Below are positions 1,574 to 22,564 of a stretch of DNA of 54,655 bases, one piece after another. The stretch comes from Enterobacteria phage mEp021. The notes under the pieces were generated by a model, which was given only the letters and a program-made list of their open reading frames with translations, was not told the DNA's origin and searched no databases. The stretch is from sequence record MH706966, one strand, 5' to 3'. Each line of letters begins with the position of its first letter. Within the stretch, counting starts at the first letter, position 1. Made by a program: the position numbers and the translations under genes.

Positions 1574-2227
1574 TTACCCCCCCGTGTATTCAACGTGTGC
1601 GATACAGCCATCAATAATTGCTTGTGCCATGTTGCGATAATCGCACGAAAAATCATTGTCATGGTTAAAGTCAATCTCTTTTGCCGCGTCTTCACCAATC
1701 ACCTTAGTAGCCAGCGCAAACGCAATTTGTGACAGTGCTTTTTCTTTTGGATCTATCCATCTGCGATATTTAAACCCATTCCATCTGGCTGTTTCTTCGT
1801 GTTTACCATCCTTTCTAACAAAGATCCCTAACTCATCGCCAGTAAAAATATATTTAGCTACGCAGTACATAGGGGCAAATTCCCCTGGGTAAAATTCTAG
1901 CCATACATTTAACGGCGGTCTTTCTCCTGGCTGCCATTCCTCGACTTTCTGCTTATCGCAATCATGGCGCTCATCTTCGATTAATTCATCAATGATTTCA
2001 CTTTCTTTATTCATGCCGTCATCATCCTTATTCGATAAATCATCGTATTTTTCAAATTTCCAGCCTGAAGCCATAGCCGAATAAGTGCTGCCATTGTCAG
2101 CACGGATACCTAATAAATAGTATGTTCCGAAATTATATTCTGTGCGGCATGTTGCCACCTCAAACGATGGGTAACACTCAGGGTTAGCGCGATGACTAAT
2201 CACGCCAATTGCTTTAAGTTTATTCAT
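1574..2227 (-). CDS. Hypothetical protein (217 aa)
   Basis: Long ORF with SD gaggat upstream; no recognisable motif. Confidence 0.5.
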   Translation of the reverse strand: MNKLKAIGVISHRANPECYPSFEVATCRTEYNFGTYYLLGIRADNGSTYSAMASGWKFEKYDDLSNKDDDGMNKESEIIDELIEDERHDCDKQKVEEWQPGERPPLNVWLEFYPGEFAPMYCVAKYIFTGDELGIFVRKDGKHEETARWNGFKYRRWIDPKEKALSQIAFALATKVIGEDAAKEIDFNHDNDFSCDYRNMAQAIIDGCIAHVEYTGG

Positions 2228-2417: not shown

Positions 2418-2849
2418 TTATTGCCCCCAGCGTTTTATAAATTCCTCGTTCAACTTAGTGTCACCAGACCATTGAACATTATGTTCAGCGCCGAACGAGT
2501 AGATCAGTTCGATTAGTTCGCTAAATTCTGCTTTACTCATCCGGCTGGTTGACGTACCCAGCACAACAAAACCTGATTTATCCAGGTTAGGGACAACGCC
2601 ATATTTCTTAAGTCCGGCAGTAAATACCGCCTTCCAGTCTTCCGGCGACAGCTTTTTTCCGTACCAATTAACCTGATCGCTAATGTCGGTTAACAGCGCC
2701 CATAAAAGGCTATTTTGACTAAGCGAGCGGGTTTTCTCCTGGATGGTAATTATCAGCGGGCTTTTGCTATCAGACTGGATCTCTCTTATCTGCCTGATAG
2801 CGTTTTCTTTTACGGCGTCGTTTACTATTTCAAATCTAATTTGCCTCAT
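2418..2849 (-). CDS. ninB: NinB-like recombination protein
   Basis: 143 aa; resemblance to the lambda NinB (Orf) family as recalled; sits in a nin-like context next to a methyltransferase. Confidence 0.65.
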   Translation of the reverse strand: MRQIRFEIVNDAVKENAIRQIREIQSDSKSPLIITIQEKTRSLSQNSLLWALLTDISDQVNWYGKKLSPEDWKAVFTAGLKKYGVVPNLDKSGFVVLGTSTSRMSKAEFSELIELIYSFGAEHNVQWSGDTKLNEEFIKRWGQ

Positions 2850-3573
2850 GGTTAGATAACGCCTCGTTTATTCTATTTGATGCAATTTCGAAATATTTTT
2901 CATCCTTTTCTATGCCGATAAAACGTCGGTTAGTATTAATGCAGGCAACGCCTGTAGTTCCGCTGCCCATAGTAAAATCGAGAACCGTTTCCCCTTCGTT
3001 AGTGTATGTCTTAATTAGGTATTCCATCAGTGCGACAGGCTTTTGTGTTGGGTGTACCTTGCCTTTCTGGTTTGCGTTACTTATCTCTATAATGCTTTTA
3101 GGGTGCTTATCCTTATAAGTCCTTAAATCACCATAATTAATTATGCGGTTTGCCTCCCCAGCAGAATATGTTTTACCCGTCCTTTCCTTTTGCGGAGTTT
3201 TTATTGGGTAATATTTGACAGCGCCTTTAGAAAAAACAACAACATCCTCATGCACCCTATAAGGTTGCCATTTGAGGACTTGCATGTTACCGCCTTTCTT
3301 CTTGTCCCATACCCAGCAATATTTAAACATGCTTATGTTGCTTGCAATTAGTGTTGTAGTGAACGGCTGACTTGCAGTCATCACAATGGCGCAATTCGGC
3401 TTAACTATGCGCTTTAATTGCTCCCACATTGGATTAAGAGGAATGACGGAATCCCATTTGCAGGCCGTTGTGCCGTAAGGCGGATCAGCCATTACCATAT
3501 CAACGCTACCGCCTGGGATAGAGTTCATGACCTCCAGACAATCACCCAACAATAATGTAACATCTTTATTCAT
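2836..3573 (-). CDS. DNA methyltransferase, N6-adenine or N4-cytosine type
   Basis: 245 aa; DPPY catalytic motif (MADPPYGT) near the N-terminus and AdoMet motif FTMGSGTTGVA near the C-terminus (motif IV before motif I). Confidence 0.75.
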   Translation of the reverse strand: MNKDVTLLLGDCLEVMNSIPGGSVDMVMADPPYGTTACKWDSVIPLNPMWEQLKRIVKPNCAIVMTASQPFTTTLIASNISMFKYCWVWDKKKGGNMQVLKWQPYRVHEDVVVFSKGAVKYYPIKTPQKERTGKTYSAGEANRIINYGDLRTYKDKHPKSIIEISNANQKGKVHPTQKPVALMEYLIKTYTNEGETVLDFTMGSGTTGVACINTNRRFIGIEKDEKYFEIASNRINEALSNHEAN

Positions 3574-7736: not shown

Positions 7737-9224
7737 TCATTGGCAGAAAACAATCTCTTTAAATGCTTTTTCTACCATGTCGAATACTTCCGGCCTGTAA
7801 TAGAAAAACTCATTGCTTCCATCAAATTTCACAGGAAAATTGATTTTATAATTACTAAAAGCCTTATGCATCGTGTTTTCTAGTTTATGTATACTTTCGG
7901 TTGGCCCTTCTAACGTTTTCACGACACACAAATCAGGGATTCTAACACCTGCTTTATGTGCGCTTTTTAATATCCGATTTCTTCGCTCGTTCTCCTTAAC
8001 ACTTACGCCGATTTTCATTTGTGTAGGTAATTCCAGATCATCAACCATGATGTAAAGTTTGCCATAATCATAACGAAAGAAACCGTATTTAGCGCATTTT
8101 TGGCAACCCCTACCGCGCTTAAGTTCTCTAGGTCTAACCGACCACTTATGATTACAAACCTTACAGCGGCATGATACTTTTTTATTTACGTTCGTTATTT
8201 CTCCCAGCACTTCAACATCAGGATTAACCTTAGCAATAGCTAAAACATGTTCTTCGTGCGTTATAATCTTCCCAGCACATTTTGGGCAACCCTTCCCGCG
8301 TTTAAGGTTGCTAGGAGTAACCGACCACTTATGATTACAAACCTTACAGCGGCATGATACTTTTTTATCTACGTTCGTTATTTCTCCCAGCACTTCAACA
8401 TCAGGATTAACCTTAGCAATAGCTAAAACATGTTCTTCGTGCGTTATAATCTTCCCAGCACATTTTGGGCAACCCTTACCGCGCTTAAGGTGGTTAGGTC
8501 TAACTGACCATTCATGATCACAAACCTTGCAGCGGCATAATACTTTTTTGTCGCCACCTGTAATTTCACCCAGCACTTCAACATCAGGATTAACCTTCGC
8601 AATGGCAGCAATTTGTTTATAATGTGATAGTCTTAGTTTTTGTGCAATTTTCACACATTTACATTTCGGGCAACCGCTCCCGTGTTTAAGGGCGTCAGGC
8701 GTAGCCGACCATACACGATCACAAATCTTGCAGCGGCATAATACTTTTGTTCTGCTATTAACAATTTTCCCCAGCACTTCAACATCAGGATTAATTCTTG
8801 AGATGGCGGCGATCTGTTCTTCGTGTGATAATCTTTTTGGCCCTTGCTTTAACATTGCGCATTTCGGGCAACCATTCCCGCGTTTAAGGTTGCTAGGAGT
8901 AACCGACCACTCATGATCACAAACCTTGCAGCGGCATAATACTTTTGTGCTGTTATTTATTATTTCCCCCAACACTTCAACATCAGGATTAATTTTAGCA
9001 ATAGCCGCAATTTGTTCTTCGTGGGATAGCCTTGCGTTCCCAGCGCATTTTGGGCAACCTTTACCGTGTTTAAGGTTGCTAGGAGTAACCGACCATTCAT
9101 GATCACAAACCTTGCAGCGGCATAATACTTTTTCCCGGCTTCCAGTAATTTCTCCCATCACTTCAACATCAGGATTAACTTTCGCAATAGCTGCAACCTG
9201 TTCTTCGTGTGTTAGCTTGCACAT
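7737..9224 (-). CDS. Protein with six tandem Zn-ribbon modules and a C-terminal GIY-YIG-like (T5orf172-type) domain
   Basis: 495 aa; six ~55-aa repeats HEEQVAAIAKVNPDVEVLGEI...C.C..C.H.W...P..L..G.GCPKC; C-terminal GKLYIMVDD...KIGVS...RRNRIL pattern; repeats 5 and 6 are near-identical at DNA level. Confidence 0.55.
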   Translation of the reverse strand: MCKLTHEEQVAAIAKVNPDVEVMGEITGSREKVLCRCKVCDHEWSVTPSNLKHGKGCPKCAGNARLSHEEQIAAIAKINPDVEVLGEIINNSTKVLCRCKVCDHEWSVTPSNLKRGNGCPKCAMLKQGPKRLSHEEQIAAISRINPDVEVLGKIVNSRTKVLCRCKICDRVWSATPDALKHGSGCPKCKCVKIAQKLRLSHYKQIAAIAKVNPDVEVLGEITGGDKKVLCRCKVCDHEWSVRPNHLKRGKGCPKCAGKIITHEEHVLAIAKVNPDVEVLGEITNVDKKVSCRCKVCNHKWSVTPSNLKRGKGCPKCAGKIITHEEHVLAIAKVNPDVEVLGEITNVNKKVSCRCKVCNHKWSVRPRELKRGRGCQKCAKYGFFRYDYGKLYIMVDDLELPTQMKIGVSVKENERRNRILKSAHKAGVRIPDLCVVKTLEGPTESIHKLENTMHKAFSNYKINFPVKFDGSNEFFYYRPEVFDMVEKAFKEIVFCQ

Positions 9225-12638: not shown

Positions 12639-12761
12639 ATGGTTATCGAGGCGCTCAAATTCAAACTTGCGGTAGCGGAAATGCTTCATGATGCCGAAAT
12701 GTGGAGCGCCGCGAATAAAGCCTTATACGTAGTGTTAACAGCGAAGGAGATCAAAGAGTGA
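12639..12761 (+). CDS. Hypothetical small protein (40 aa)
   Basis: Strong SD ggaggtga; stop overlaps the erf start. Confidence 0.35.
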   Translation: MVIEALKFKLAVAEMLHDAEMWSAANKALYVVLTAKEIKE

Positions 12762-13399
12762 AAACAGAGTTACACAAAAAGCTGTGGACGATTCAACAAA
12801 CGTTGAATGCGCCGAAAAATCAGCGTAATAATTTCGGTGGGTACAATTACAGGTCGGCGGAGGATATTTTAGAGGCGGTTAAGCCACTGCTTCAAAATAT
12901 CACGCTGACTGTTAGCGATGAAATCGTCCTGATCGGCAATCGCTATTATGTGAAGGCCACAGCTACGCTAAGCGACGGTGAAGATGAAATTGCGGTAACT
13001 GCTTACGCCAGGGAAGAAGAAAGCAAGAAGGGAATGGACGCAAGCCAGTTAACTGGCGCGACATCAAGTTATGCGCGGAAATACGCGTTGAACGGATTGT
13101 TCTGTATTGATGATGCGCGAGATCCTGATACTGACGCATACGCGAAGCAGACTGGCCAGCAGCCTCGCCAGCAGAAAAACACACCAAAACAACAACCACA
13201 GCAGCAGAAAGCGCCGCCAAATCCTGACGAGGTGTTAGCGCGTTTCTGTGATGCAGCAGCGAAAGCGCCTGACGCTAACAAGTTGCGCGAGATATTCGGG
13301 AAGTGCTGGAAGCTACTTCCTAAAGATTCAGAACAGCAACAGAAAGCTAAAGACGTTTATGATATTCGCTTAAAAGAGCTTAACGGGGAGATCGGTTAA
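12758..13399 (+). CDS. erf: Erf-family single-strand annealing protein
   Basis: 213 aa; N-terminus LNAPKNQRNNFGGYNYRSAEDILEAVKPLL resembles P22 Erf as recalled; GTG start with SD gaaggaga. Confidence 0.75.
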   Translation: MKTELHKKLWTIQQTLNAPKNQRNNFGGYNYRSAEDILEAVKPLLQNITLTVSDEIVLIGNRYYVKATATLSDGEDEIAVTAYAREEESKKGMDASQLTGATSSYARKYALNGLFCIDDARDPDTDAYAKQTGQQPRQQKNTPKQQPQQQKAPPNPDEVLARFCDAAAKAPDANKLREIFGKCWKLLPKDSEQQQKAKDVYDIRLKELNGEIG

Positions 13400-13809
13400 T
13401 GAGCTTAAATTCAATTACGCTTGGCGGTAACGTTGGGAATGATTGCGAAACGAGATTTACATCAAACGGGAAAGCAATCGGTAGTTTCTCACTTGCTGTA
13501 CAACAAGGTTACGGTGATAACAAACGTGCAATGTGGGTAACGTGTTTAATATTAGGTGATAGAGCAACAAAATTAGCCGAACATATTAGGAAGGGGGATC
13601 ACCTGGTTGTAAGTGGTCGGTTGGATGTTAGGGATTGGGAAGGGCAGGACGGAAGAAAAAACAAATCAGTTGAGGTTATCGTGTCAGATATTGAATTTAT
13701 GAGCGGAAATAAACGCAGCGACCAAAACCAAAACAGACAACGCGAACAGCAACAACAATATAACCAGGATAACGGCGGGCAGGACTGCGACCAAGATATC
13801 CCATTTTAG
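13399..13809 (+). CDS. ssb: Single-stranded DNA-binding protein
   Basis: 136 aa; OB-fold pattern, glutamine-rich linker and C-terminal acidic tail ending DIPF. Confidence 0.85.
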   Translation: MSLNSITLGGNVGNDCETRFTSNGKAIGSFSLAVQQGYGDNKRAMWVTCLILGDRATKLAEHIRKGDHLVVSGRLDVRDWEGQDGRKNKSVEVIVSDIEFMSGNKRSDQNQNRQREQQQQYNQDNGGQDCDQDIPF

Positions 13810-13838
13810 CGAATATAATCAATTAGTTAGGTGTTATT

Positions 13839-14363
13839 ATGAGTAATGCCGAACCATTGAAAATATGTTGTACTTGCGGGGCACTATTGCCCCTTTCTTG
13901 TTTTCATAACGATAAGGGCAAGAAAGACGGCAAATCATGTAGATGTAAAGAGTGCGCCAAAAAAGCCACTAGAGAATGGAGTGAAGCGAATAAAGAAAGA
14001 AAAAAGAAAAATGATAGCGAATACGCAAAAACAGATAAAGCCAAAAAGAAAAGGGAAGAATACAGAAAATCGCAAAGAGGTAAAGAGATCGCGGCTGAAT
14101 CAAGAAAAAAATGGAATGAGAAAAACCCTAAAAAATACCACGCCCAAGTGATGGCACATAACGCTATCCGCGACGGCAAATTAATTAAACAACCTTGCGA
14201 AGTATGCGGCAGAGATGACCGCGTACACGCGCACCATTGCGATTATGATAAGCCGCTCGATGTTATGTGGCTTTGCCCGATATGCCATCGAGAGTGGCAC
14301 AACGAACACGGTGAAGGAGCTAATGCACACGACGAGGTATTAAGTGGTGAGCGAATATCTTAA
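13839..14363 (+). CDS. Zinc-binding protein with HNH-like C-terminal motif and lysine-rich centre
   Basis: 174 aa; CCTCG...C.C.EC then HAHHCDYDKPLDVMWLCPICHREWH. Confidence 0.5.
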   Translation: MSNAEPLKICCTCGALLPLSCFHNDKGKKDGKSCRCKECAKKATREWSEANKERKKKNDSEYAKTDKAKKKREEYRKSQRGKEIAAESRKKWNEKNPKKYHAQVMAHNAIRDGKLIKQPCEVCGRDDRVHAHHCDYDKPLDVMWLCPICHREWHNEHGEGANAHDEVLSGERIS

Positions 14364-14628
14364 AGCACCGCCACCGCCACCGCGAACAAAAGAACAAGTA
14401 TTAAAAGAAGCCCGTGATCATATCGATCATGGGCTTTTTTTATGCGGAACGGCGGCGGATCGAATGGCGAAAAGATTTAGTGACCTGTACGCAAAACAAA
14501 TATGGTTCGACAACTGGCAGGCAAGTTTTTACCCACTGCAAAGAAAACCGGATATGCATTGGCCTGAATATGTCGATCCACGTATGCGCAAATATCGCGG
14601 GCGTATGGGCCAGGTTATTAACGATTAA
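14344..14628 (+). CDS. Hypothetical protein (94 aa)
   Basis: ORF in the rightward early operon. Confidence 0.4.
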   Translation: MVSEYLKAPPPPPRTKEQVLKEARDHIDHGLFLCGTAADRMAKRFSDLYAKQIWFDNWQASFYPLQRKPDMHWPEYVDPRMRKYRGRMGQVIND

Positions 14629-14642
14629 TGAGGTATTAAATC

Positions 14643-14867
14643 ATGATCGAAGATAAAGAAGTTGACGTAGAAATTCCTGACAGCGCTGATGAGCTTATCA
14701 CTTTCGGCGGCGGCCTGTATGAGTTCGATACATCGGCTGGGTGGGTTGATAAGTGGCCTCAGCCTACTCGCCAGGAATTAATTAACCGCAAATCATTCGG
14801 CGAAGATGCAGAACGCCTTGCTAATAACAAGTGGCTTAACAAGTTCATTGCGGAGGGTGATAAATGA
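14643..14867 (+). CDS. Hypothetical acidic protein (74 aa)
   Basis: ORF with SD; D/E-rich. Confidence 0.45.
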   Translation: MIEDKEVDVEIPDSADELITFGGGLYEFDTSAGWVDKWPQPTRQELINRKSFGEDAERLANNKWLNKFIAEGDK

Positions 14868-14977
14868 ACCTTGCAAAAATTGCCGCATTGCTTGCGGCTT
14901 TGTCTATCGCTGTGCTGTATCTCAGCGTATCGCTTTATATAACGGTAGCGATCATTAAACTCATTGCTAACATGTGA
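14864..14977 (+). CDS. Small membrane peptide (37 aa)
   Basis: MNLAKIAALLAALSIAVLYLSVSLYITVAIIKLIANM; ATGA overlap with the upstream stop; SD ggaggg. Confidence 0.45.
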   Translation: MNLAKIAALLAALSIAVLYLSVSLYITVAIIKLIANM

Positions 14978-14985
14978 GGTTAATC

Positions 14986-15105
14986 ATGAAAGTCGGTAAG
15001 GATATTGTGACGGTCGCGTTTTGCATTATTTGCTTCCTATTTGTGGTTGTGTTTTGTGGCGGATTTGCAGCGCTGGTTAGCTTTATTTTCAGGGGATTGT
15101 TGTGA
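14986..15105 (+). CDS. Small membrane peptide (39 aa)
   Basis: MKVGKDIVTVAFCIICFLFVVVFCGGFAALVSFIFRGLL; SD tgaggt; overlaps the next gene start. Confidence 0.45.
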   Translation: MKVGKDIVTVAFCIICFLFVVVFCGGFAALVSFIFRGLL

Positions 15106-15377
15106 TGAAAACATGGGATGCAAAGACTGGTGATCTTGTTGTATTGCCTGAATATCGTGATGACCCTGGCCTGGTTGTACTGAATAAGATGTATAACGAT
15201 CTAGATCGCCCGCTAGTGGTTAAATACCTGGACGGAACAATCATAGAACCGCGCTACTTTGATGATATTGAACTGAAGGCCCGCAACGTTCGCGTTAAGC
15301 CGTTCCGGGCTTATGTTGAGGACCACTGGCGGAAATTGTTCGCCGGACTGAATGGGATGTACGGCGTATGGCTATAA
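15102..15377 (+). CDS. Hypothetical protein (91 aa)
   Basis: ORF in a tightly packed operon. Confidence 0.45.
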   Translation: MMKTWDAKTGDLVVLPEYRDDPGLVVLNKMYNDLDRPLVVKYLDGTIIEPRYFDDIELKARNVRVKPFRAYVEDHWRKLFAGLNGMYGVWL

Positions 15378-15559
15378 AGGAAGTAAAGGTCAAAGACCTG
15401 AAAGGCGGTGAGCGATTAAAGGCGTGGTGGGGTCGCGAGTTTACAGCCGCTGCCTTCATGATCATGCAGGGCGGGGAGGTCGTTATATACGATGAAGACC
15501 TGAAGGAAGTCGGCAGGTGGCATCTTGAGCAATATATCGAGGTGTTAGATGAAAATTAA
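15368..15559 (+). CDS. Hypothetical protein (63 aa)
   Basis: ORF in a tightly packed operon. Confidence 0.4.
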   Translation: MAIKEVKVKDLKGGERLKAWWGREFTAAAFMIMQGGEVVIYDEDLKEVGRWHLEQYIEVLDEN

Positions 15560-15881
15560 ATTCCATAAAGGTTATGATTCGGTCACTAACAAGTTATCGC
15601 TATTTATTGAGTTCGAGCGCCGGATCGTGGTTGTTCCTTATTCTCGGCGCTTTAATGATGCGGCAGGGCGGCGGCAATTCGCGTTAGACATGTTGTTACG
15701 TGGCTGCGGCCTTATGCGCCCGCTATCTGATTTGAAACGGATGATGCCGGGATCGTTCGGTCAGATTGATGAAATAGAAATAAGCCCGGAAGAACTGAAG
15801 CGGGAGCGTGATTTATTCCTTTCAAGCGAAGGAAACCCGTTTAATTCAGAAACAGAAATGAAATGGCATCACCCACTATAA
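15549..15881 (+). CDS. Hypothetical protein (110 aa)
   Basis: ORF in a tightly packed operon. Confidence 0.45.
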   Translation: MKIKFHKGYDSVTNKLSLFIEFERRIVVVPYSRRFNDAAGRRQFALDMLLRGCGLMRPLSDLKRMMPGSFGQIDEIEISPEELKRERDLFLSSEGNPFNSETEMKWHHPL

Positions 15882-15894
15882 AAGGATAAATATC

Positions 15895-16515
15895 ATGAAC
15901 GACATTAAAACAGCTTATTCACTAGGCAGCGATGGCATGTTAATCACTCGCTACACTGAAGACGCAAGTTTTCATGAAGTGGAAACGAAGGATTATCACG
16001 AAGTATTAAAAGATATGGAAGCTGGCGCGTATGACGCAGATTTGAATCTGGCTTTACAGATTGTTGATATTATGATGGACGCGTCGATCCGCGATTATGT
16101 GTCTTTAAACGCTGAAGAAAAAACGGCTGTGGCTCGTTATGTCTTCTGCCTAACTTTCGTGAAACGAATGGAAGAGGAATATGGGCGCGTGCCAGTGCCG
16201 GAAGAAATTGACCCGCTGGCGTTCGGAAGCGCTGTTATTTTCCCGTTAGATGAAAATCATACTGGTAGCGTTGCGCTGCATTCTATGCGCGGCGTAATGA
16301 AATGCATCTTTGAGGCTAAAGCGCTACAGAAGTGCATTGATGAAGGGCATGACGAAGAAGACGTAAAAGCGATCATGCCGTTGTTTTATGGCGAAATGGT
16401 TGGGAACAACATGCGCGCAAATGATTTAGGTGTGCAGGCTGCCATAACTGTACTTAACGAAGCGCGGAAAATGTCGCAGCCAATGCCGGAACCTGAAAAA
16501 CGTGTACTGCATTAA
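15895..16515 (+). CDS. Hypothetical acidic protein (206 aa)
   Basis: Long ORF with SD; markedly D/E-rich. Confidence 0.5.
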   Translation: MNDIKTAYSLGSDGMLITRYTEDASFHEVETKDYHEVLKDMEAGAYDADLNLALQIVDIMMDASIRDYVSLNAEEKTAVARYVFCLTFVKRMEEEYGRVPVPEEIDPLAFGSAVIFPLDENHTGSVALHSMRGVMKCIFEAKALQKCIDEGHDEEDVKAIMPLFYGEMVGNNMRANDLGVQAAITVLNEARKMSQPMPEPEKRVLH

Positions 16516-16614
16516 CATCGTGATTGCGATCACATAAATATACATTTTGTGTTGTGATCGCATATCCGTTTTGTAAACTGAAATCAAAAGGTTTACGGCA
16601 CGGAGGAAAACAAG

Positions 16615-16833
16615 ATGGCAAGCGAATTAATGCTTTATTGTGTTGAAGGTGGCGTGGGACATGATGCCTACGTCGCCGGGAAAAGCTATCCAGCAGATGA
16701 AGTGCTTTCTAATATGCACTTCCGGGAAAATGAAAACCAGGTGTCTGTGTGGAAGCGATGCGTTGATGGCATTGAGGTAGTTAGCCTCGAAAGATATTTG
16801 GGTAAATTTGACTACGCATTGATCGAGGCTTAA
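16615..16833 (+). CDS. Hypothetical protein (72 aa)
   Basis: SD cggagg upstream. Confidence 0.45.
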   Translation: MASELMLYCVEGGVGHDAYVAGKSYPADEVLSNMHFRENENQVSVWKRCVDGIEVVSLERYLGKFDYALIEA

Positions 16834-16931
16834 CTATGGACGAAACATTGCTATTCATGTGCATTTGCTGGGGTTTTATTGCCTTATGCCTGTTTATCAG
16901 GTGGTTTATTGAATACCATATGAGGTGATAT

Positions 16932-17126
16932 ATGGAACAGAAAACTGATTATAGAATACCTGACAACCTGAAGTTAGTTGGCATTGGTTTTGGTTGTCGT
17001 TTTGTATCTGACGCAAACGGGGCGATTTATTTAGTGCGCATCATTGATGGCGTTCAACATATAAGAAGGCTAGGACTTTACATCAAAGCATTTAGAAGAG
17101 GTTATTTGAAAACTCATGAAATTTAA
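16932..17126 (+). CDS. Hypothetical protein (64 aa)
   Basis: ORF with SD gaggtga. Confidence 0.4.
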   Translation: MEQKTDYRIPDNLKLVGIGFGCRFVSDANGAIYLVRIIDGVQHIRRLGLYIKAFRRGYLKTHEI

Positions 17127-17319
17127 ACAGTATAAAGAATGGAAGATTCCAGAAGAAGCGACAAAGGCAGCGCCCGGAATTTTTTCGGGCGTTTATTTTT
17201 ATATGGGCGGTAAATGGTATTTCGGCAGCAGGCCGGATCACTATTATCAAGAATTATGCAAATCTCACACATGGGACATTAATGAACGCGTGCAAGGCGG
17301 TGTAATAGACGAGGTTTAA
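17116..17319 (+). CDS. Hypothetical protein (67 aa)
   Basis: ORF overlapping its neighbours by a few nt. Confidence 0.4.
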   Translation: MKFKQYKEWKIPEEATKAAPGIFSGVYFYMGGKWYFGSRPDHYYQELCKSHTWDINERVQGGVIDEV

Positions 17320-17320
17320 A

Positions 17321-17557
17321 ATGATTAATGGTTTTTTAAGCTGGTTAAGAGTGTGGTTTTTTGCCACGCTTTTCGTTTTTTTGGCGTTCAGCGGTGTCAT
17401 TGTCATATTTACGCTGGCGATGATGTTCATTACATGGTCAGTACCTGAATTTAACAATCTTGGAAGTATTTTTGCTGTCGCCCGCGCCATGTTTGCTTGT
17501 AGCGCATTTGTTGGTTTTTGTTGGAGTGTTTCGCCTGATTGGGATGATGAATGGTGA
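17321..17557 (+). CDS. Small membrane protein (78 aa, two predicted TM helices)
   Basis: Hydrophobic segments FFATLFVFLAFSGVIVIFTLAMMFI and FACSAFVGFCW. Confidence 0.45.
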   Translation: MINGFLSWLRVWFFATLFVFLAFSGVIVIFTLAMMFITWSVPEFNNLGSIFAVARAMFACSAFVGFCWSVSPDWDDEW

Positions 17558-17561
17558 TCCT

Positions 17562-17795
17562 ATGGCCTTGTTCAATATGTCAGAACTGCAATTCAACGCC
17601 GTAAAAGCTGCCGCCCGCGCTGCACTTTCTGCTTGCAAAGCGGAGGTAGAGAAAAACGGCTACAGCGATAAAGCCACGCGGCTGATATTAGAAAAGCATT
17701 ATCGCAAGGTCGCCCCACTAATCAGCATTGAGCGCTTTGTGTGGTTGGTGGGGTATTTAAACAACCGTTGGGGGACGGAACAAGATTATTTCTAA
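17562..17795 (+). CDS. Hypothetical protein (77 aa)
   Basis: Internal ATG start chosen to avoid overlap with the upstream membrane-protein ORF. Confidence 0.4.
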   Translation: MALFNMSELQFNAVKAAARAALSACKAEVEKNGYSDKATRLILEKHYRKVAPLISIERFVWLVGYLNNRWGTEQDYF

Positions 17796-17804
17796 GGGGG
17801 CGTA

Positions 17805-18344
17805 ATGAAAAATGATTTTGGAGGCAGCCACACTCCTAAGGAAATTAAAGATCTATGGCAGACGCCTAAACCAGTTTTCAGAGGAATGGACCGCGAATTT
17901 GAATTTGTCGCTGACGTGGCGGCAAACAAGGAAAATGCGCTAGTTCCTCGGTATATAACCGAAGAAATGGACACGTTGCATTATCCGTGGGGAGCTGTGG
18001 CAATGCCTGGTGAGTATGTCTGGCTTAATCCGCCATATTCTAAACCGGGGCCATTCGTTGAGAAGGCGGCATTAGAACATCAACGAAATCACATTGGCTG
18101 TGTAATGCTGTTGCCCGCTGACATTTCTGTTAGCTGGTTTATGAACGGCGTGGATACGGCAAACGAATGCCGATTAATCACGCGCGGGCGGCTGGCGTTT
18201 ATCAATGCTGCGACTGGTAAGCCAGTAAGCGGAAACAATAAAGGGAGCTTGTTTTTGATCTGGCATCCACGGTGCAGACATGAATGTATTTTTACACACA
18301 TAACACGTAAAGAGCTATACGCAAGAGGTGCAGATAATGACTAG
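17805..18344 (+). CDS. dam: Phage-type DNA N6-adenine methyltransferase (Dam-like)
   Basis: 179 aa; WQTPKPVF...DVAANKENALVPRYIT...WLNPPYS pattern of the phage Dam family; SD aaggggg. Confidence 0.75.
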   Translation: MKNDFGGSHTPKEIKDLWQTPKPVFRGMDREFEFVADVAANKENALVPRYITEEMDTLHYPWGAVAMPGEYVWLNPPYSKPGPFVEKAALEHQRNHIGCVMLLPADISVSWFMNGVDTANECRLITRGRLAFINAATGKPVSGNNKGSLFLIWHPRCRHECIFTHITRKELYARGADND

Positions 18345-18834
18345 TGCAGCAGATTTACTACGAATCGCAGCGGAAACAATTGAGCAAAGAGGTAAACAAA
18401 ACGGCTACGACAGAAAAGAGGAAAAATCAGCGCCAAAAATAGCCACTATATACAACGCTAAGAAGGGCGCAAATTTAACCCCACTTGATGTATGGGATCT
18501 GATGATTTGTCTTAAGGAGGCGCGTTTAGAGGCTATTTTGGTTAATGGCAGCGATCCCACTGACACTTTGGTTGACCTAATCAGCTACAGCGCACTAAAA
18601 GCTGAGCAAATATTGAATGATCTGGATGAAGAGTTAAAGAAAAATCAGTTCACTGCCGCCAATATTAATGATGGAATAATAAATGACGCAGCAATAACAA
18701 GCTGTAAGGGATTGCCGCCTTCAATGCTTAAACCTCAGTGTGGCTGTATTTCAAATCGGCTTGATTTGAGTTTTGACAGATCTGAAGCTATTCGCGACAA
18801 GAGGTATGACCCAAATGAAAAAGGTGACAATTGA
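18337..18834 (+). CDS. Hypothetical protein (about 165 aa)
   Basis: ORF with SD aagagg; no motif recognised. Confidence 0.45.
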   Translation: MTSAADLLRIAAETIEQRGKQNGYDRKEEKSAPKIATIYNAKKGANLTPLDVWDLMICLKEARLEAILVNGSDPTDTLVDLISYSALKAEQILNDLDEELKKNQFTAANINDGIINDAAITSCKGLPPSMLKPQCGCISNRLDLSFDRSEAIRDKRYDPNEKGDN

Positions 18835-21612: not shown

Positions 21613-22334
21613 TGAATTTGGAATCTATTCTTAAATTCCATTTCCCAAAGTCACCGCGTTTGTCAGATGAAAGCCGTGGAACATCACCTGATGCACTTAA
21701 TACTACTGATGCACTAACCGCCGCAGGTATGGCGCAATCTCGCGTAGAGCTTGGATATAGCGCTTTTTTAGGGAAGATGGAACTATCACAAGCCGAAAAA
21801 CATAAGGCCGTAGTTTTGCTTATAGAGCGTTTAAAGGCTATGGCAAAAGATTATAAATACGTTATGGAACTGGACGAGGCACAACGCAATGATCTCATTA
21901 TTCTTGTTGCCGTTTTTGCGTTTCGGGATTATTGCCAGAGTGCCGCGACGGAAAAAACTTGCATGGAGTGCGGCGGATATAAATTTACGTTTGACGAATA
22001 CGGTGAAAAACACCTTTGTAAAAAATGCAAGGGGCATGGGACAGTTCGCAATCATTGTAAACAATGCAAGGGCCGTGGCGAAGTACCGGACAAAGCAGCC
22101 AGCGAAGCGACGGAAATGCCAGTATTCAAAACGTGCCAGCATTGCGGCGGGCGCGGTTACTCGCGTTTCCCAGTAGATCTTGTTCGGCAGGCGGTTAATC
22201 AGCTTGTTTTCCCTGTAAGCCGATCAACATGGTGGAAGAAATACAGGGTTTTCTATGAAGACGCCATAGTGGAGCTATTCAAAGAAGAATCTCGCGCGGA
22301 AAGCGAAATCAAACGAGTGACACGGGGTGAATAA
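21612..22334 (+). CDS. Q: Late-gene antiterminator Q (lambda Q family)
   Basis: 240 aa; N-terminus LESILKFHFPKSPRLSDESRG...AAGMAQS and Zn-finger CxxC...CxxC region parallel lambda Q as recalled. Confidence 0.7.
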   Translation: MNLESILKFHFPKSPRLSDESRGTSPDALNTTDALTAAGMAQSRVELGYSAFLGKMELSQAEKHKAVVLLIERLKAMAKDYKYVMELDEAQRNDLIILVAVFAFRDYCQSAATEKTCMECGGYKFTFDEYGEKHLCKKCKGHGTVRNHCKQCKGRGEVPDKAASEATEMPVFKTCQHCGGRGYSRFPVDLVRQAVNQLVFPVSRSTWWKKYRVFYEDAIVELFKEESRAESEIKRVTRGE

Positions 22335-22564
22335 TGGAGCTAAAAATCTGGCAGGCTATCGACGTTGTTGATAATGAATTGTCTATGTTCGCCACTAACG
22401 GGAAACGCGTTGTGATCGCTACATGGACTCGTAACCATGATGATATTGCTTTTCGTCGCGCGGCGGCGGAATTGCTTTTCTCTGATGGCGGCTACACGAT
22501 GAACATCGACCAGCTTGCAAGAATGAAAGATGAAAAACTGGTTGATAGCTACACAACTGCTTAA
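22334..22564 (+). CDS. Hypothetical protein (76 aa)
   Basis: ORF directly after Q. Confidence 0.4.
   Translation: MELKIWQAIDVVDNELSMFATNGKRVVIATWTRNHDDIAFRRAAAELLFSDGGYTMNIDQLARMKDEKLVDSYTTA

Follow-up and report, generated by a model that had tools for sequence, protein, structure and literature searches.

Two early acidic proteins of phage mEp021: a divergent DUF2737 protein encoded beside an abc2 homologue and a lineage-restricted alpha/beta protein

The complete genome of Enterobacteria phage mEp021 (sequence record MH706966), analysed here as a single window of 54,655 nucleotides (nt), contains two early genes, gp22 and gp25, whose products a preliminary description had put forward as candidate DNA mimics or host-takeover factors on account of their acidity. 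We find that both are genuine, selectively constrained delayed-early genes, and that their acidity is ordinary and undiagnostic. The joint explanation that we favor, tentatively and with a little less than even confidence, is that these are real early genes of unremarkable acidity in which gp22 is an accessory of the DUF2737 family linked to Abc2, and gp25 is a protein-binding protein. mEp021 is the prototype of the non-lambdoid, Nus-dependent mEpimmI phage group (PMC11893012). We studied positions 12700–18400 by comparison with deposited phage records; over this region mEp515 is 100% identical, and mEp554, mEp010, mEp044, mEp013, and MagusPhagus are 84–91% identical. The two open reading frames (ORFs) are exactly where they had been placed, with lengths of 74 and 206 amino acids (aa):

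14643–14867, plus strand: gp22 (mEp021_22 / mEp515_30; AXN54141.1), 74 aa, a small protein assigned to the DUF2737 family as a divergent member.
15895–16515, plus strand: gp25 (mEp021_25 / mEp515_36; AXN54144.1), 206 aa, a lineage-restricted compact alpha/beta protein of PHROG 1515.

Both products are labelled 'hypothetical protein' in every deposited annotation. Numerous small ORFs in the region were annotated by PHANOTATE alone, which would favor the view that gp22 and gp25 arose as open frames by chance or are genes in decay, with a meaningless composition. This view is next to impossible. Pairwise Nei–Gojobori averages across the six mEp021-type phages gave a mean ratio of nonsynonymous to synonymous substitution rates (dN/dS) of 0.12 for gp25, with dS reaching saturating values of up to 1.0, and of 0.19 for gp22 (0.31 for codons 1–36 and 0.10 for codons 37–74); these values already refute it, and we rejected it. 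In addition, hundreds of homologue clusters are conserved over their full length (453 for gp25 and 84 for gp22 at 90% identity, nearly all from Escherichia coli prophages or phage-sized contigs), gp25 has a confidently predicted fold, and Shine–Dalgarno-like motifs (GAGG and AAGGA) lie 9–10 nt 5' of the ATG codons of gp22 and gp25. On the published mEp021 map, nutR1 lies upstream of the N-like gene gp17 and nutR2 downstream of gp32 (PMC11893012). Because gp22 and gp25 are both located between nutR1 and nutR2, their earlier designation as early genes is correct, and they belong to the early operon that depends on the N-like protein Gp17. A promoter and terminator scan did not assign a transcription unit of its own to gp22 or gp25, and promoter-like sites were no more frequent than in shuffled sequence.

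On profile evidence, gp22 is assigned to DUF2737 as a divergent member, the positional counterpart of P22 ORF56, HK97 gp38, and HK620 HkaI. Its best PHROG match is phrog_28542 (E = 1.1e-46), and there are weaker matches to phrog_4684 (E = 5.5e-6) and phrog_1117. The Pfam DUF2737 model (PF10930) matches gp22 with E = 0.006 and 16.9 bits, and 3 of 15 members of the gp22 family with E < 0.01. When the profile of the gp22 family was compared in hhalign with that of seven DUF2737 proteins, the probability of a match was 96.9% (E = 1.9e-10, residues 35–73). A core motif, P-x-P-[ST]-R-x-E-L-x-x-R-[NK]-S-F-[GP]...N-K-[YW]-L-[ND], is common to gp22, HK97 gp38, and the P22-like and Guernseyvirinae homologues in the alignment. 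Thus gp22 resembles DUF2737 proteins (P22 ORF56, HK97 gp38, HK620 HkaI, epsilon34 gp32) both in residues 35–73, which align with the family core, and in its position directly 3' of abc2 in an early operon that contains erf. It differs from them in several respects: (i) its core has a 4-residue insertion and scores under the Pfam threshold; (ii) it carries a 36-residue acidic extension with a conserved motif of its own; and (iii) canonical members are only 54–57 aa long and are basic or neutral. The two parts of gp22 are as follows:

14643–14750, plus strand: residues 1–36, acidic N-terminal extension; net charge -10, 31% aspartate plus glutamate (D+E), dN/dS 0.31.
14751–14864, plus strand: residues 37–74, DUF2737 core (P.PTR.EL..RKSFG....NNKWL); net charge +2, three short helices, dN/dS 0.10.

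The extension is absent from canonical DUF2737 proteins, among which the HK97 and P22-like members have a net charge of +6 and an isoelectric point (pI) of 10.4, and SP-031 has a net charge of 0. Because canonical members are basic or neutral and the gp22 core carries +2, whereas the extension carries -10, the acidity of gp22 lies wholly in the extension; it is a lineage-specific addition and not a conserved DUF2737 trait. In the AlphaFold2 model of gp22, built from a 16-sequence alignment, the mean predicted local distance difference test score (pLDDT) is 63; residues 1–26 are mostly below 50, and residues 41–70 form three short helices at about 80. A motif spanning residues 13–38, D..D.F..F.GG.YEF[DE]TSAGW.DKW, is kept in both the 74-aa and the 81–83-aa subfamilies, and this region may fold upon binding.

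The genes upstream of gp22 place it in a recombination module. The annotations of mEp515 and MagusPhagus give erf and ssb, and an abc2 homologue lies between these and gp22:

12758–13399, plus strand: erf.
13399–13809, plus strand: ssb.
14344–14628, plus strand: divergent homologue of abc2 (anti-RecBCD), 94 aa, ending 14 nt 5' of gp22.

The 94-aa product matches phrog_656, 'abc2 anti-RecBCD', over residues 4–94 (E = 1.8e-30); its C-terminal 37 aa are 43% identical to HK97 Abc2 in BLASTP, and it is labelled abc2 in the MagusPhagus record. The Pfam Abc2 model (PF11043) gave no match to the mEp021 homologue, and abc2 is not mentioned in the paper on the mEpimmI group. The order of genes in HK97 is erf, gp40, abc2, and the DUF2737 gene; mEp021 likewise has erf, then abc2, then gp22. 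The spacer between abc2 and the DUF2737 gene is 10 nt in HK97, BIS08P22, and epsilon34, and the same pair occurs in P22 (abc2 and ORF56) and HK620 (hkaJ and hkaI). In the phage collection, the loci examined for this pairing were L004 (positions 2131–2599), L005, and L013.

By tblastn against phage records, full-length DUF2737 was found in 223 records and Abc2 in 225, with equal counts for the two within groups (51 for Stx2a phages, 15 for Stx1a phages). A DNA query spanning abc2 and the DUF2737 gene was covered to at least 80% in 209 of the 238 matching records. The supplement of an accessory-gene screen also lists abc2 adjoining DUF2737 in two Salmonella prophages, and reports no function for DUF2737 there. 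The two genes are thus an almost obligate pair in lambdoid, P22-like, and Stx phages; in the Erf/Abc2 modules of P22, HK97, HK620, Sf6, and Stx phages, the DUF2737 gene comes after abc2.

Several details of the neighborhood were recorded alongside. An HNH / endonuclease VII-like gene (13839–14363, plus strand; phrog_2340, E = 3.4e-41) lies between ssb and abc2 and also has a weak match to phrog_5558 (Lar-like restriction alleviation). It is present in mEp021, mEp515, and mEp554, is absent from mEp010, mEp044, and MagusPhagus, and looks like a mobile insertion. The abc2 homologue begins at a GTG codon that overlaps the 3' end of this HNH gene, and the mEp515 record gives it as a shortened 54-aa hypothetical protein (14464–14628 in the window).

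Abc2 binds RecC together with the host protein PpiB, and its believed effect is to steer RecBCD toward the recombinase of the phage. Two accessory proteins of P22, Abc1 and Arf, are uncharacterised, and the small size and acidity of Arf have raised the suspicion that it is a mimic (PMC9836394). The mEp021 module shares with P22 Abc2/Abc1/Arf an operon logic in which Erf is joined by small accessory proteins that reprogram RecBCD; it differs in that gp22 is homologous to neither Abc1 nor Arf and matches instead ORF56, downstream of abc2. Because DUF2737 accompanies abc2, the most economical role for gp22 would be that of a binding accessory in a module for takeover of host recombination. As read from synteny only, it would be a small protein-binding accessory that is expressed with Abc2 and acts on the RecBCD/recombination machinery of the host or alongside it, and not a folded DNA mimic. 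The part of the preliminary description that spoke of host takeover is therefore plausible for gp22 through its synteny with the RecBCD-hijacking gene abc2, but not through composition, from which it had been proposed. DUF2737 is a cheap, testable candidate for a missing partner in the redirection of RecBCD by Abc2 and Erf, and a divergent, acidic version of it recurs in the mEp021 group, which is non-lambdoid.

For gp25, the searches made point to a family confined to the mEp021 phage lineage. Residues 7–206 of gp25 align with positions 4–203 of the 203 positions of the PHROG 1515 profile (E = 2.5e-54). The match is thus end to end, but the PHROG family is itself unannotated and, in the large databases, comes down to the mEp021-type cluster and one sister cluster. 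Searches with the single sequence and with a profile found no match in Pfam, NCBIfam, PADLOC, or PDB sequences, and structural comparison found no significant match in PDB or BFVD. A word-indexed search returned relatives that were all more than 93% identical. HMMER, run exhaustively over 1.84 billion representatives, yielded the family's own cluster, fragments of it, and one distant cluster (P0209, 27% identity), which as a query added only one other, P0211. A further hit of that scan, P0210, was rejected as a spurious repeat protein. In 50,697 phage records, tblastn with gp25 matched just the six mEp021-type phages.

The setting of the gene is shared with a distant relative. The P0211 homologue is encoded on an 11.9-kb phage contig (L003), where a 108-aa gene, the gp25 homologue (2221–2883), a 71-aa gene, and a 30-aa gene are followed further downstream by Dam, DUF6378, NinG, RusA, and Q-like genes. 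The equivalent order in mEp021 is a 110-aa gene, gp25, a 72-aa gene, and a 30-aa gene. Between mEp021 and this contig, gp25 is 25% identical and its neighbors are 37–65% identical, making gp25 the most diverged member of the block.

AlphaFold2 modeling of gp25 from an 8-sequence alignment produced a compact alpha/beta structure with 12 secondary-structure elements (pLDDT 88, predicted template modeling score 0.84). Strands are formed by residues 5–9, 15–20, 27–32, 98–100, 112–117, and 123–126, and helices by residues 34–42, 50–65, 73–96, 128–149, 154–166, and 177–193, after which there is a flexible tail. Residues that are invariant in comparison with homologues of 24–28% identity include D23, D47, D49, E104, and the C-terminal L205–H206. 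The conspicuous acidic clusters EEE (93–95) and DEGHDEED (149–156) are not kept in the distant homologues. Acidic residues occupy 11 of the 37 acidic gp25 positions in both distant homologues, which have net charges of -13 and -16. We infer that gp25 would act by protein–protein binding to a host or phage partner, possibly through a loop with the D-x-D residues D47 and D49 and through the Leu-His tail.

What that partner might be divides the possibilities for gp25 in two. One is that gp25 inhibits a defense or host factor by specific protein–protein binding, in an arms race with that factor. Its place in the early operon would suit such a role, and so would the lack of relatives for its fold, a typical trait of phage inhibitors. 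The conserved dipeptide that ends its flexible tail, and by far the greatest divergence in the block shared with the L003 contig (25% against 37–65%), fit as well. However, selection within the mEp021 group is strongly purifying (dN/dS 0.12), the gene is present in all six sequenced phages and sits in a fixed syntenic block and not in a variable accessory region, and neither PADLOC nor any other search returned a match. On this balance we consider an inhibitor somewhat unlikely. The second possibility is a function internal to the phage, for example as an accessory to replication, recombination, or regulation in this lineage. In its favor, gp25 behaves as a core gene whose synteny is kept in a phage with about 25–55% protein identity, is restricted to the lineage, and is set between recombination genes and Dam/NinG/RusA. 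Against it, no nucleic-acid-binding or enzymatic domain was detected in Pfam, PHROG, or profile searches, the replication genes (HTH_36 initiator-like and DnaB) are in another operon, and an acidic surface is atypical for DNA-binding proteins; we regard such a function as rather unlikely. With a confident model, restriction to a lineage, and no structural relatives, gp25 is a reasonable target for functional screens, and its phage group is reportedly as prevalent in the human gut as the lambdoid phages.

Two side observations concern the surroundings of gp25. The 110-aa protein encoded directly upstream (15549–15881, plus strand) is paralogous over its N-terminal 65 residues to a 76-aa ORF (22334–22564, plus strand) that directly follows the gene for the Q-like antiterminator (pairwise E = 1e-10 at 32% identity), and the same relation is found on the L003 contig. 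Downstream of gp25 there is a gap of about 100 nt (16516–16614), unusually long for this tightly packed operon, which contains the palindrome GTGATTGCGATCAC and a nearby repeat TGTGATCGCA; an ORF of 29–33 aa is annotated there in mEp554 and mEp010. The gap could be a regulatory site.

The joint reading of gp22 as an Abc2-linked accessory and gp25 as a protein-binding protein takes as established the reality of the genes, their homology and synteny, the confidence of the gp25 fold, and its lack of structural relatives; both mechanisms are what we infer. Several points weigh against it. About 470 further records, from lytic phages of Guernseyvirinae, Kagunavirus, and similar type, have a core-only DUF2737 gene next to NinH-like genes and no abc2, and DUF2737 therefore does not depend strictly on Abc2. 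Abc2 binds RecBCD in vitro in the absence of a DUF2737 partner (PMC9836394). gp22 does not exceed the PF10930 gathering cutoff (16.9 vs 25 bits), and a disordered N-terminus is tentative because the gp22 model is weak (pLDDT 63). Protein binding is assigned to gp25 by default. Finally, literature searches for mEp021 gp22 and gp25, DUF2737, the PHROG identifiers, the accessions, and P22 ORF56 provided no functional information.

The acidity that first drew attention to the two proteins was ranked among the 88 non-overlapping ORFs of the window and assessed by a binomial test that took the pooled D+E frequency (11.9%) as its reference. gp22 contains 17 D+E residues in 74 (23.0%) and has a net charge of -8, or -0.108 per residue; gp25 contains 37 in 206 (18.0%) and has a net charge of -17, or -0.083 per residue. 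Their pI values, the calculation of which had been proposed as a check, are 4.33 and 4.66, respectively. They rank first and fifth in D+E content and first and third in net negative charge per residue. The preliminary description had called them conspicuously D/E-rich, and they are indeed the most acidic of the early products, but the magnitude is modest: with binomial P values of 0.0057 (gp22) and 0.0075 (gp25), chance alone would be expected to yield 0.50 and 0.66 such ORFs, respectively, in a set of 88. Stronger enrichment by the same test was found for the portal protein, a 161-aa protein, and a 217-aa protein, and the portal, major tail, and minor tail proteins have pI values of 4.7–4.8. 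Moderate acidity is frequent in phage proteins and does not mark out gp22 and gp25 as DNA mimics; the flagged finding is itself minor. The 217-aa protein (1574–2227, minus strand; D+E 18.4%, net charge -14, pI 4.8, binomial P = 0.0036) matches gp25 in acidity and, being without any Pfam or PHROG match, is a more complete sequence orphan than gp22 or gp25.

In DNA mimics, the surface has a suitable shape and its negative charges are arranged in space as in DNA (PMC3902945), and Ocr and ArdA have pI values of about 4 (bioRxiv preprint 10.1101/2023.04.06.535777). In Ocr, about 16 carboxylates per monomer need to be neutralised before affinity for M.EcoKI drops to approximately that of DNA (PMC3439906). 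Two known mimics served for comparison:

T7 Ocr: 117 aa, 34 D+E, net charge -28, -0.239 per residue, pI 4.05.
Lambda Gam: 138 aa, 24 D+E, net charge -8, -0.058 per residue, pI 5.53.

Like gp22 and gp25, T7 Ocr (gp0.3) is an early, acidic phage protein of low pI, but it carries -0.24 per residue, against -0.083 for gp25 and -0.108 for gp22, and has no sequence similarity to either and no fold similarity to gp25. Lambda Gam and T7 gp5.9, mimics that inhibit RecBCD, are small acidic proteins of phage recombination modules, and gp22 is found in an equivalent module; Gam has less charge per residue overall than gp22 or gp25. These two mimics are dimeric, all-helical, and compact (PMC9836394), whereas gp25 is a globule of mixed alpha/beta type and the model of gp22 is of low confidence in its acidic half, and there is no homology. 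Because Gam is less acidic and Ocr far more so, composition neither qualifies nor disqualifies gp22 and gp25 as mimics.

The idea that one or both proteins are mimics, filling the site at which restriction enzymes or other DNA-binding defenses bind DNA, nevertheless draws on several observations beyond their standing as the most acidic early products. The net negative charge of gp25 is kept (-13 and -16) in homologues of 24–28% identity, with 11 of 37 acidic positions shared, as compared with about 15 of 34 among Ocr homologues (PMC3439906). In charge density the gp22 extension is Ocr-like (-0.28 per residue), Gam needs no more than -0.058 to be a true mimic, and mimic folds are diverse and often novel, with the small acidic Arf of P22 already under suspicion (PMC9836394). 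Set against these, neither protein is related in sequence, nor gp25 in fold, to any known mimic; searches of Pfam, NCBIfam, PADLOC, and PDB with single sequences and profiles found no Ocr, ArdA, or other anti-restriction family, the weak DUF2737 match being the only one. Whole-protein charge density is 35–45% of that of Ocr, composition is unexceptional within the mEp021 genome, and the gp25 family is limited to a single lineage of phages, whereas ocr and ardA are widely mobile. The distant homologues have lost the gp25 acidic clusters at 93–95 and 149–156, and the acidic part of gp22 is modeled with low confidence while its conserved domain is basic in relatives. The genome also encodes at least two orphan DNA methyltransferases, another route around restriction. 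We therefore consider mimicry very improbable. The original suggestion of it is unsupported: no mimic family was matched, charge density is one-third to one-half of that of Ocr, the gp25 acidic clusters are unconserved, and the conserved gp22 domain is basic in its relatives.

A bolder version, which we hold to be quite improbable, would make DUF2737 an unrecognised third part of an Abc2-type RecBCD-hijacking module in which the gp22 extension would be a flexible, nucleic-acid-mimicking decoy tethered by the core; alternatively, gp25 would be a mimic or defense inhibitor with an unseen fold.

As for restriction itself, the two orphan methyltransferase genes are an N6_N4_Mtase gene (2836–3573, minus strand; E = 4.7e-36) and a Dam-like gene (17805–18344, plus strand), to which the mEp021 paper adds a further putative cytosine methyltransferase (PMC11893012). 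Judging from these genes, self-methylation is a likely means by which mEp021 counters restriction.

Elsewhere in the genome, the replication-side operon encodes a 494-aa protein (7737–9224, minus strand) of unusual overall architecture: it combines five repeats of the DUF4379 treble-clef zinc finger and four stretches of CapR homology with a T5orf172/MUG113 (GIY-YIG-like) domain at the C-terminus. Among terminator-like hairpins in the region studied, the strongest (17169–17193, plus strand; 11 bp, 6 GC, T-run) lies within an ORF at 17116–17319 and corresponds to the annotated terminator T4 of mEp515; it is presumably read through by Gp17 antitermination.

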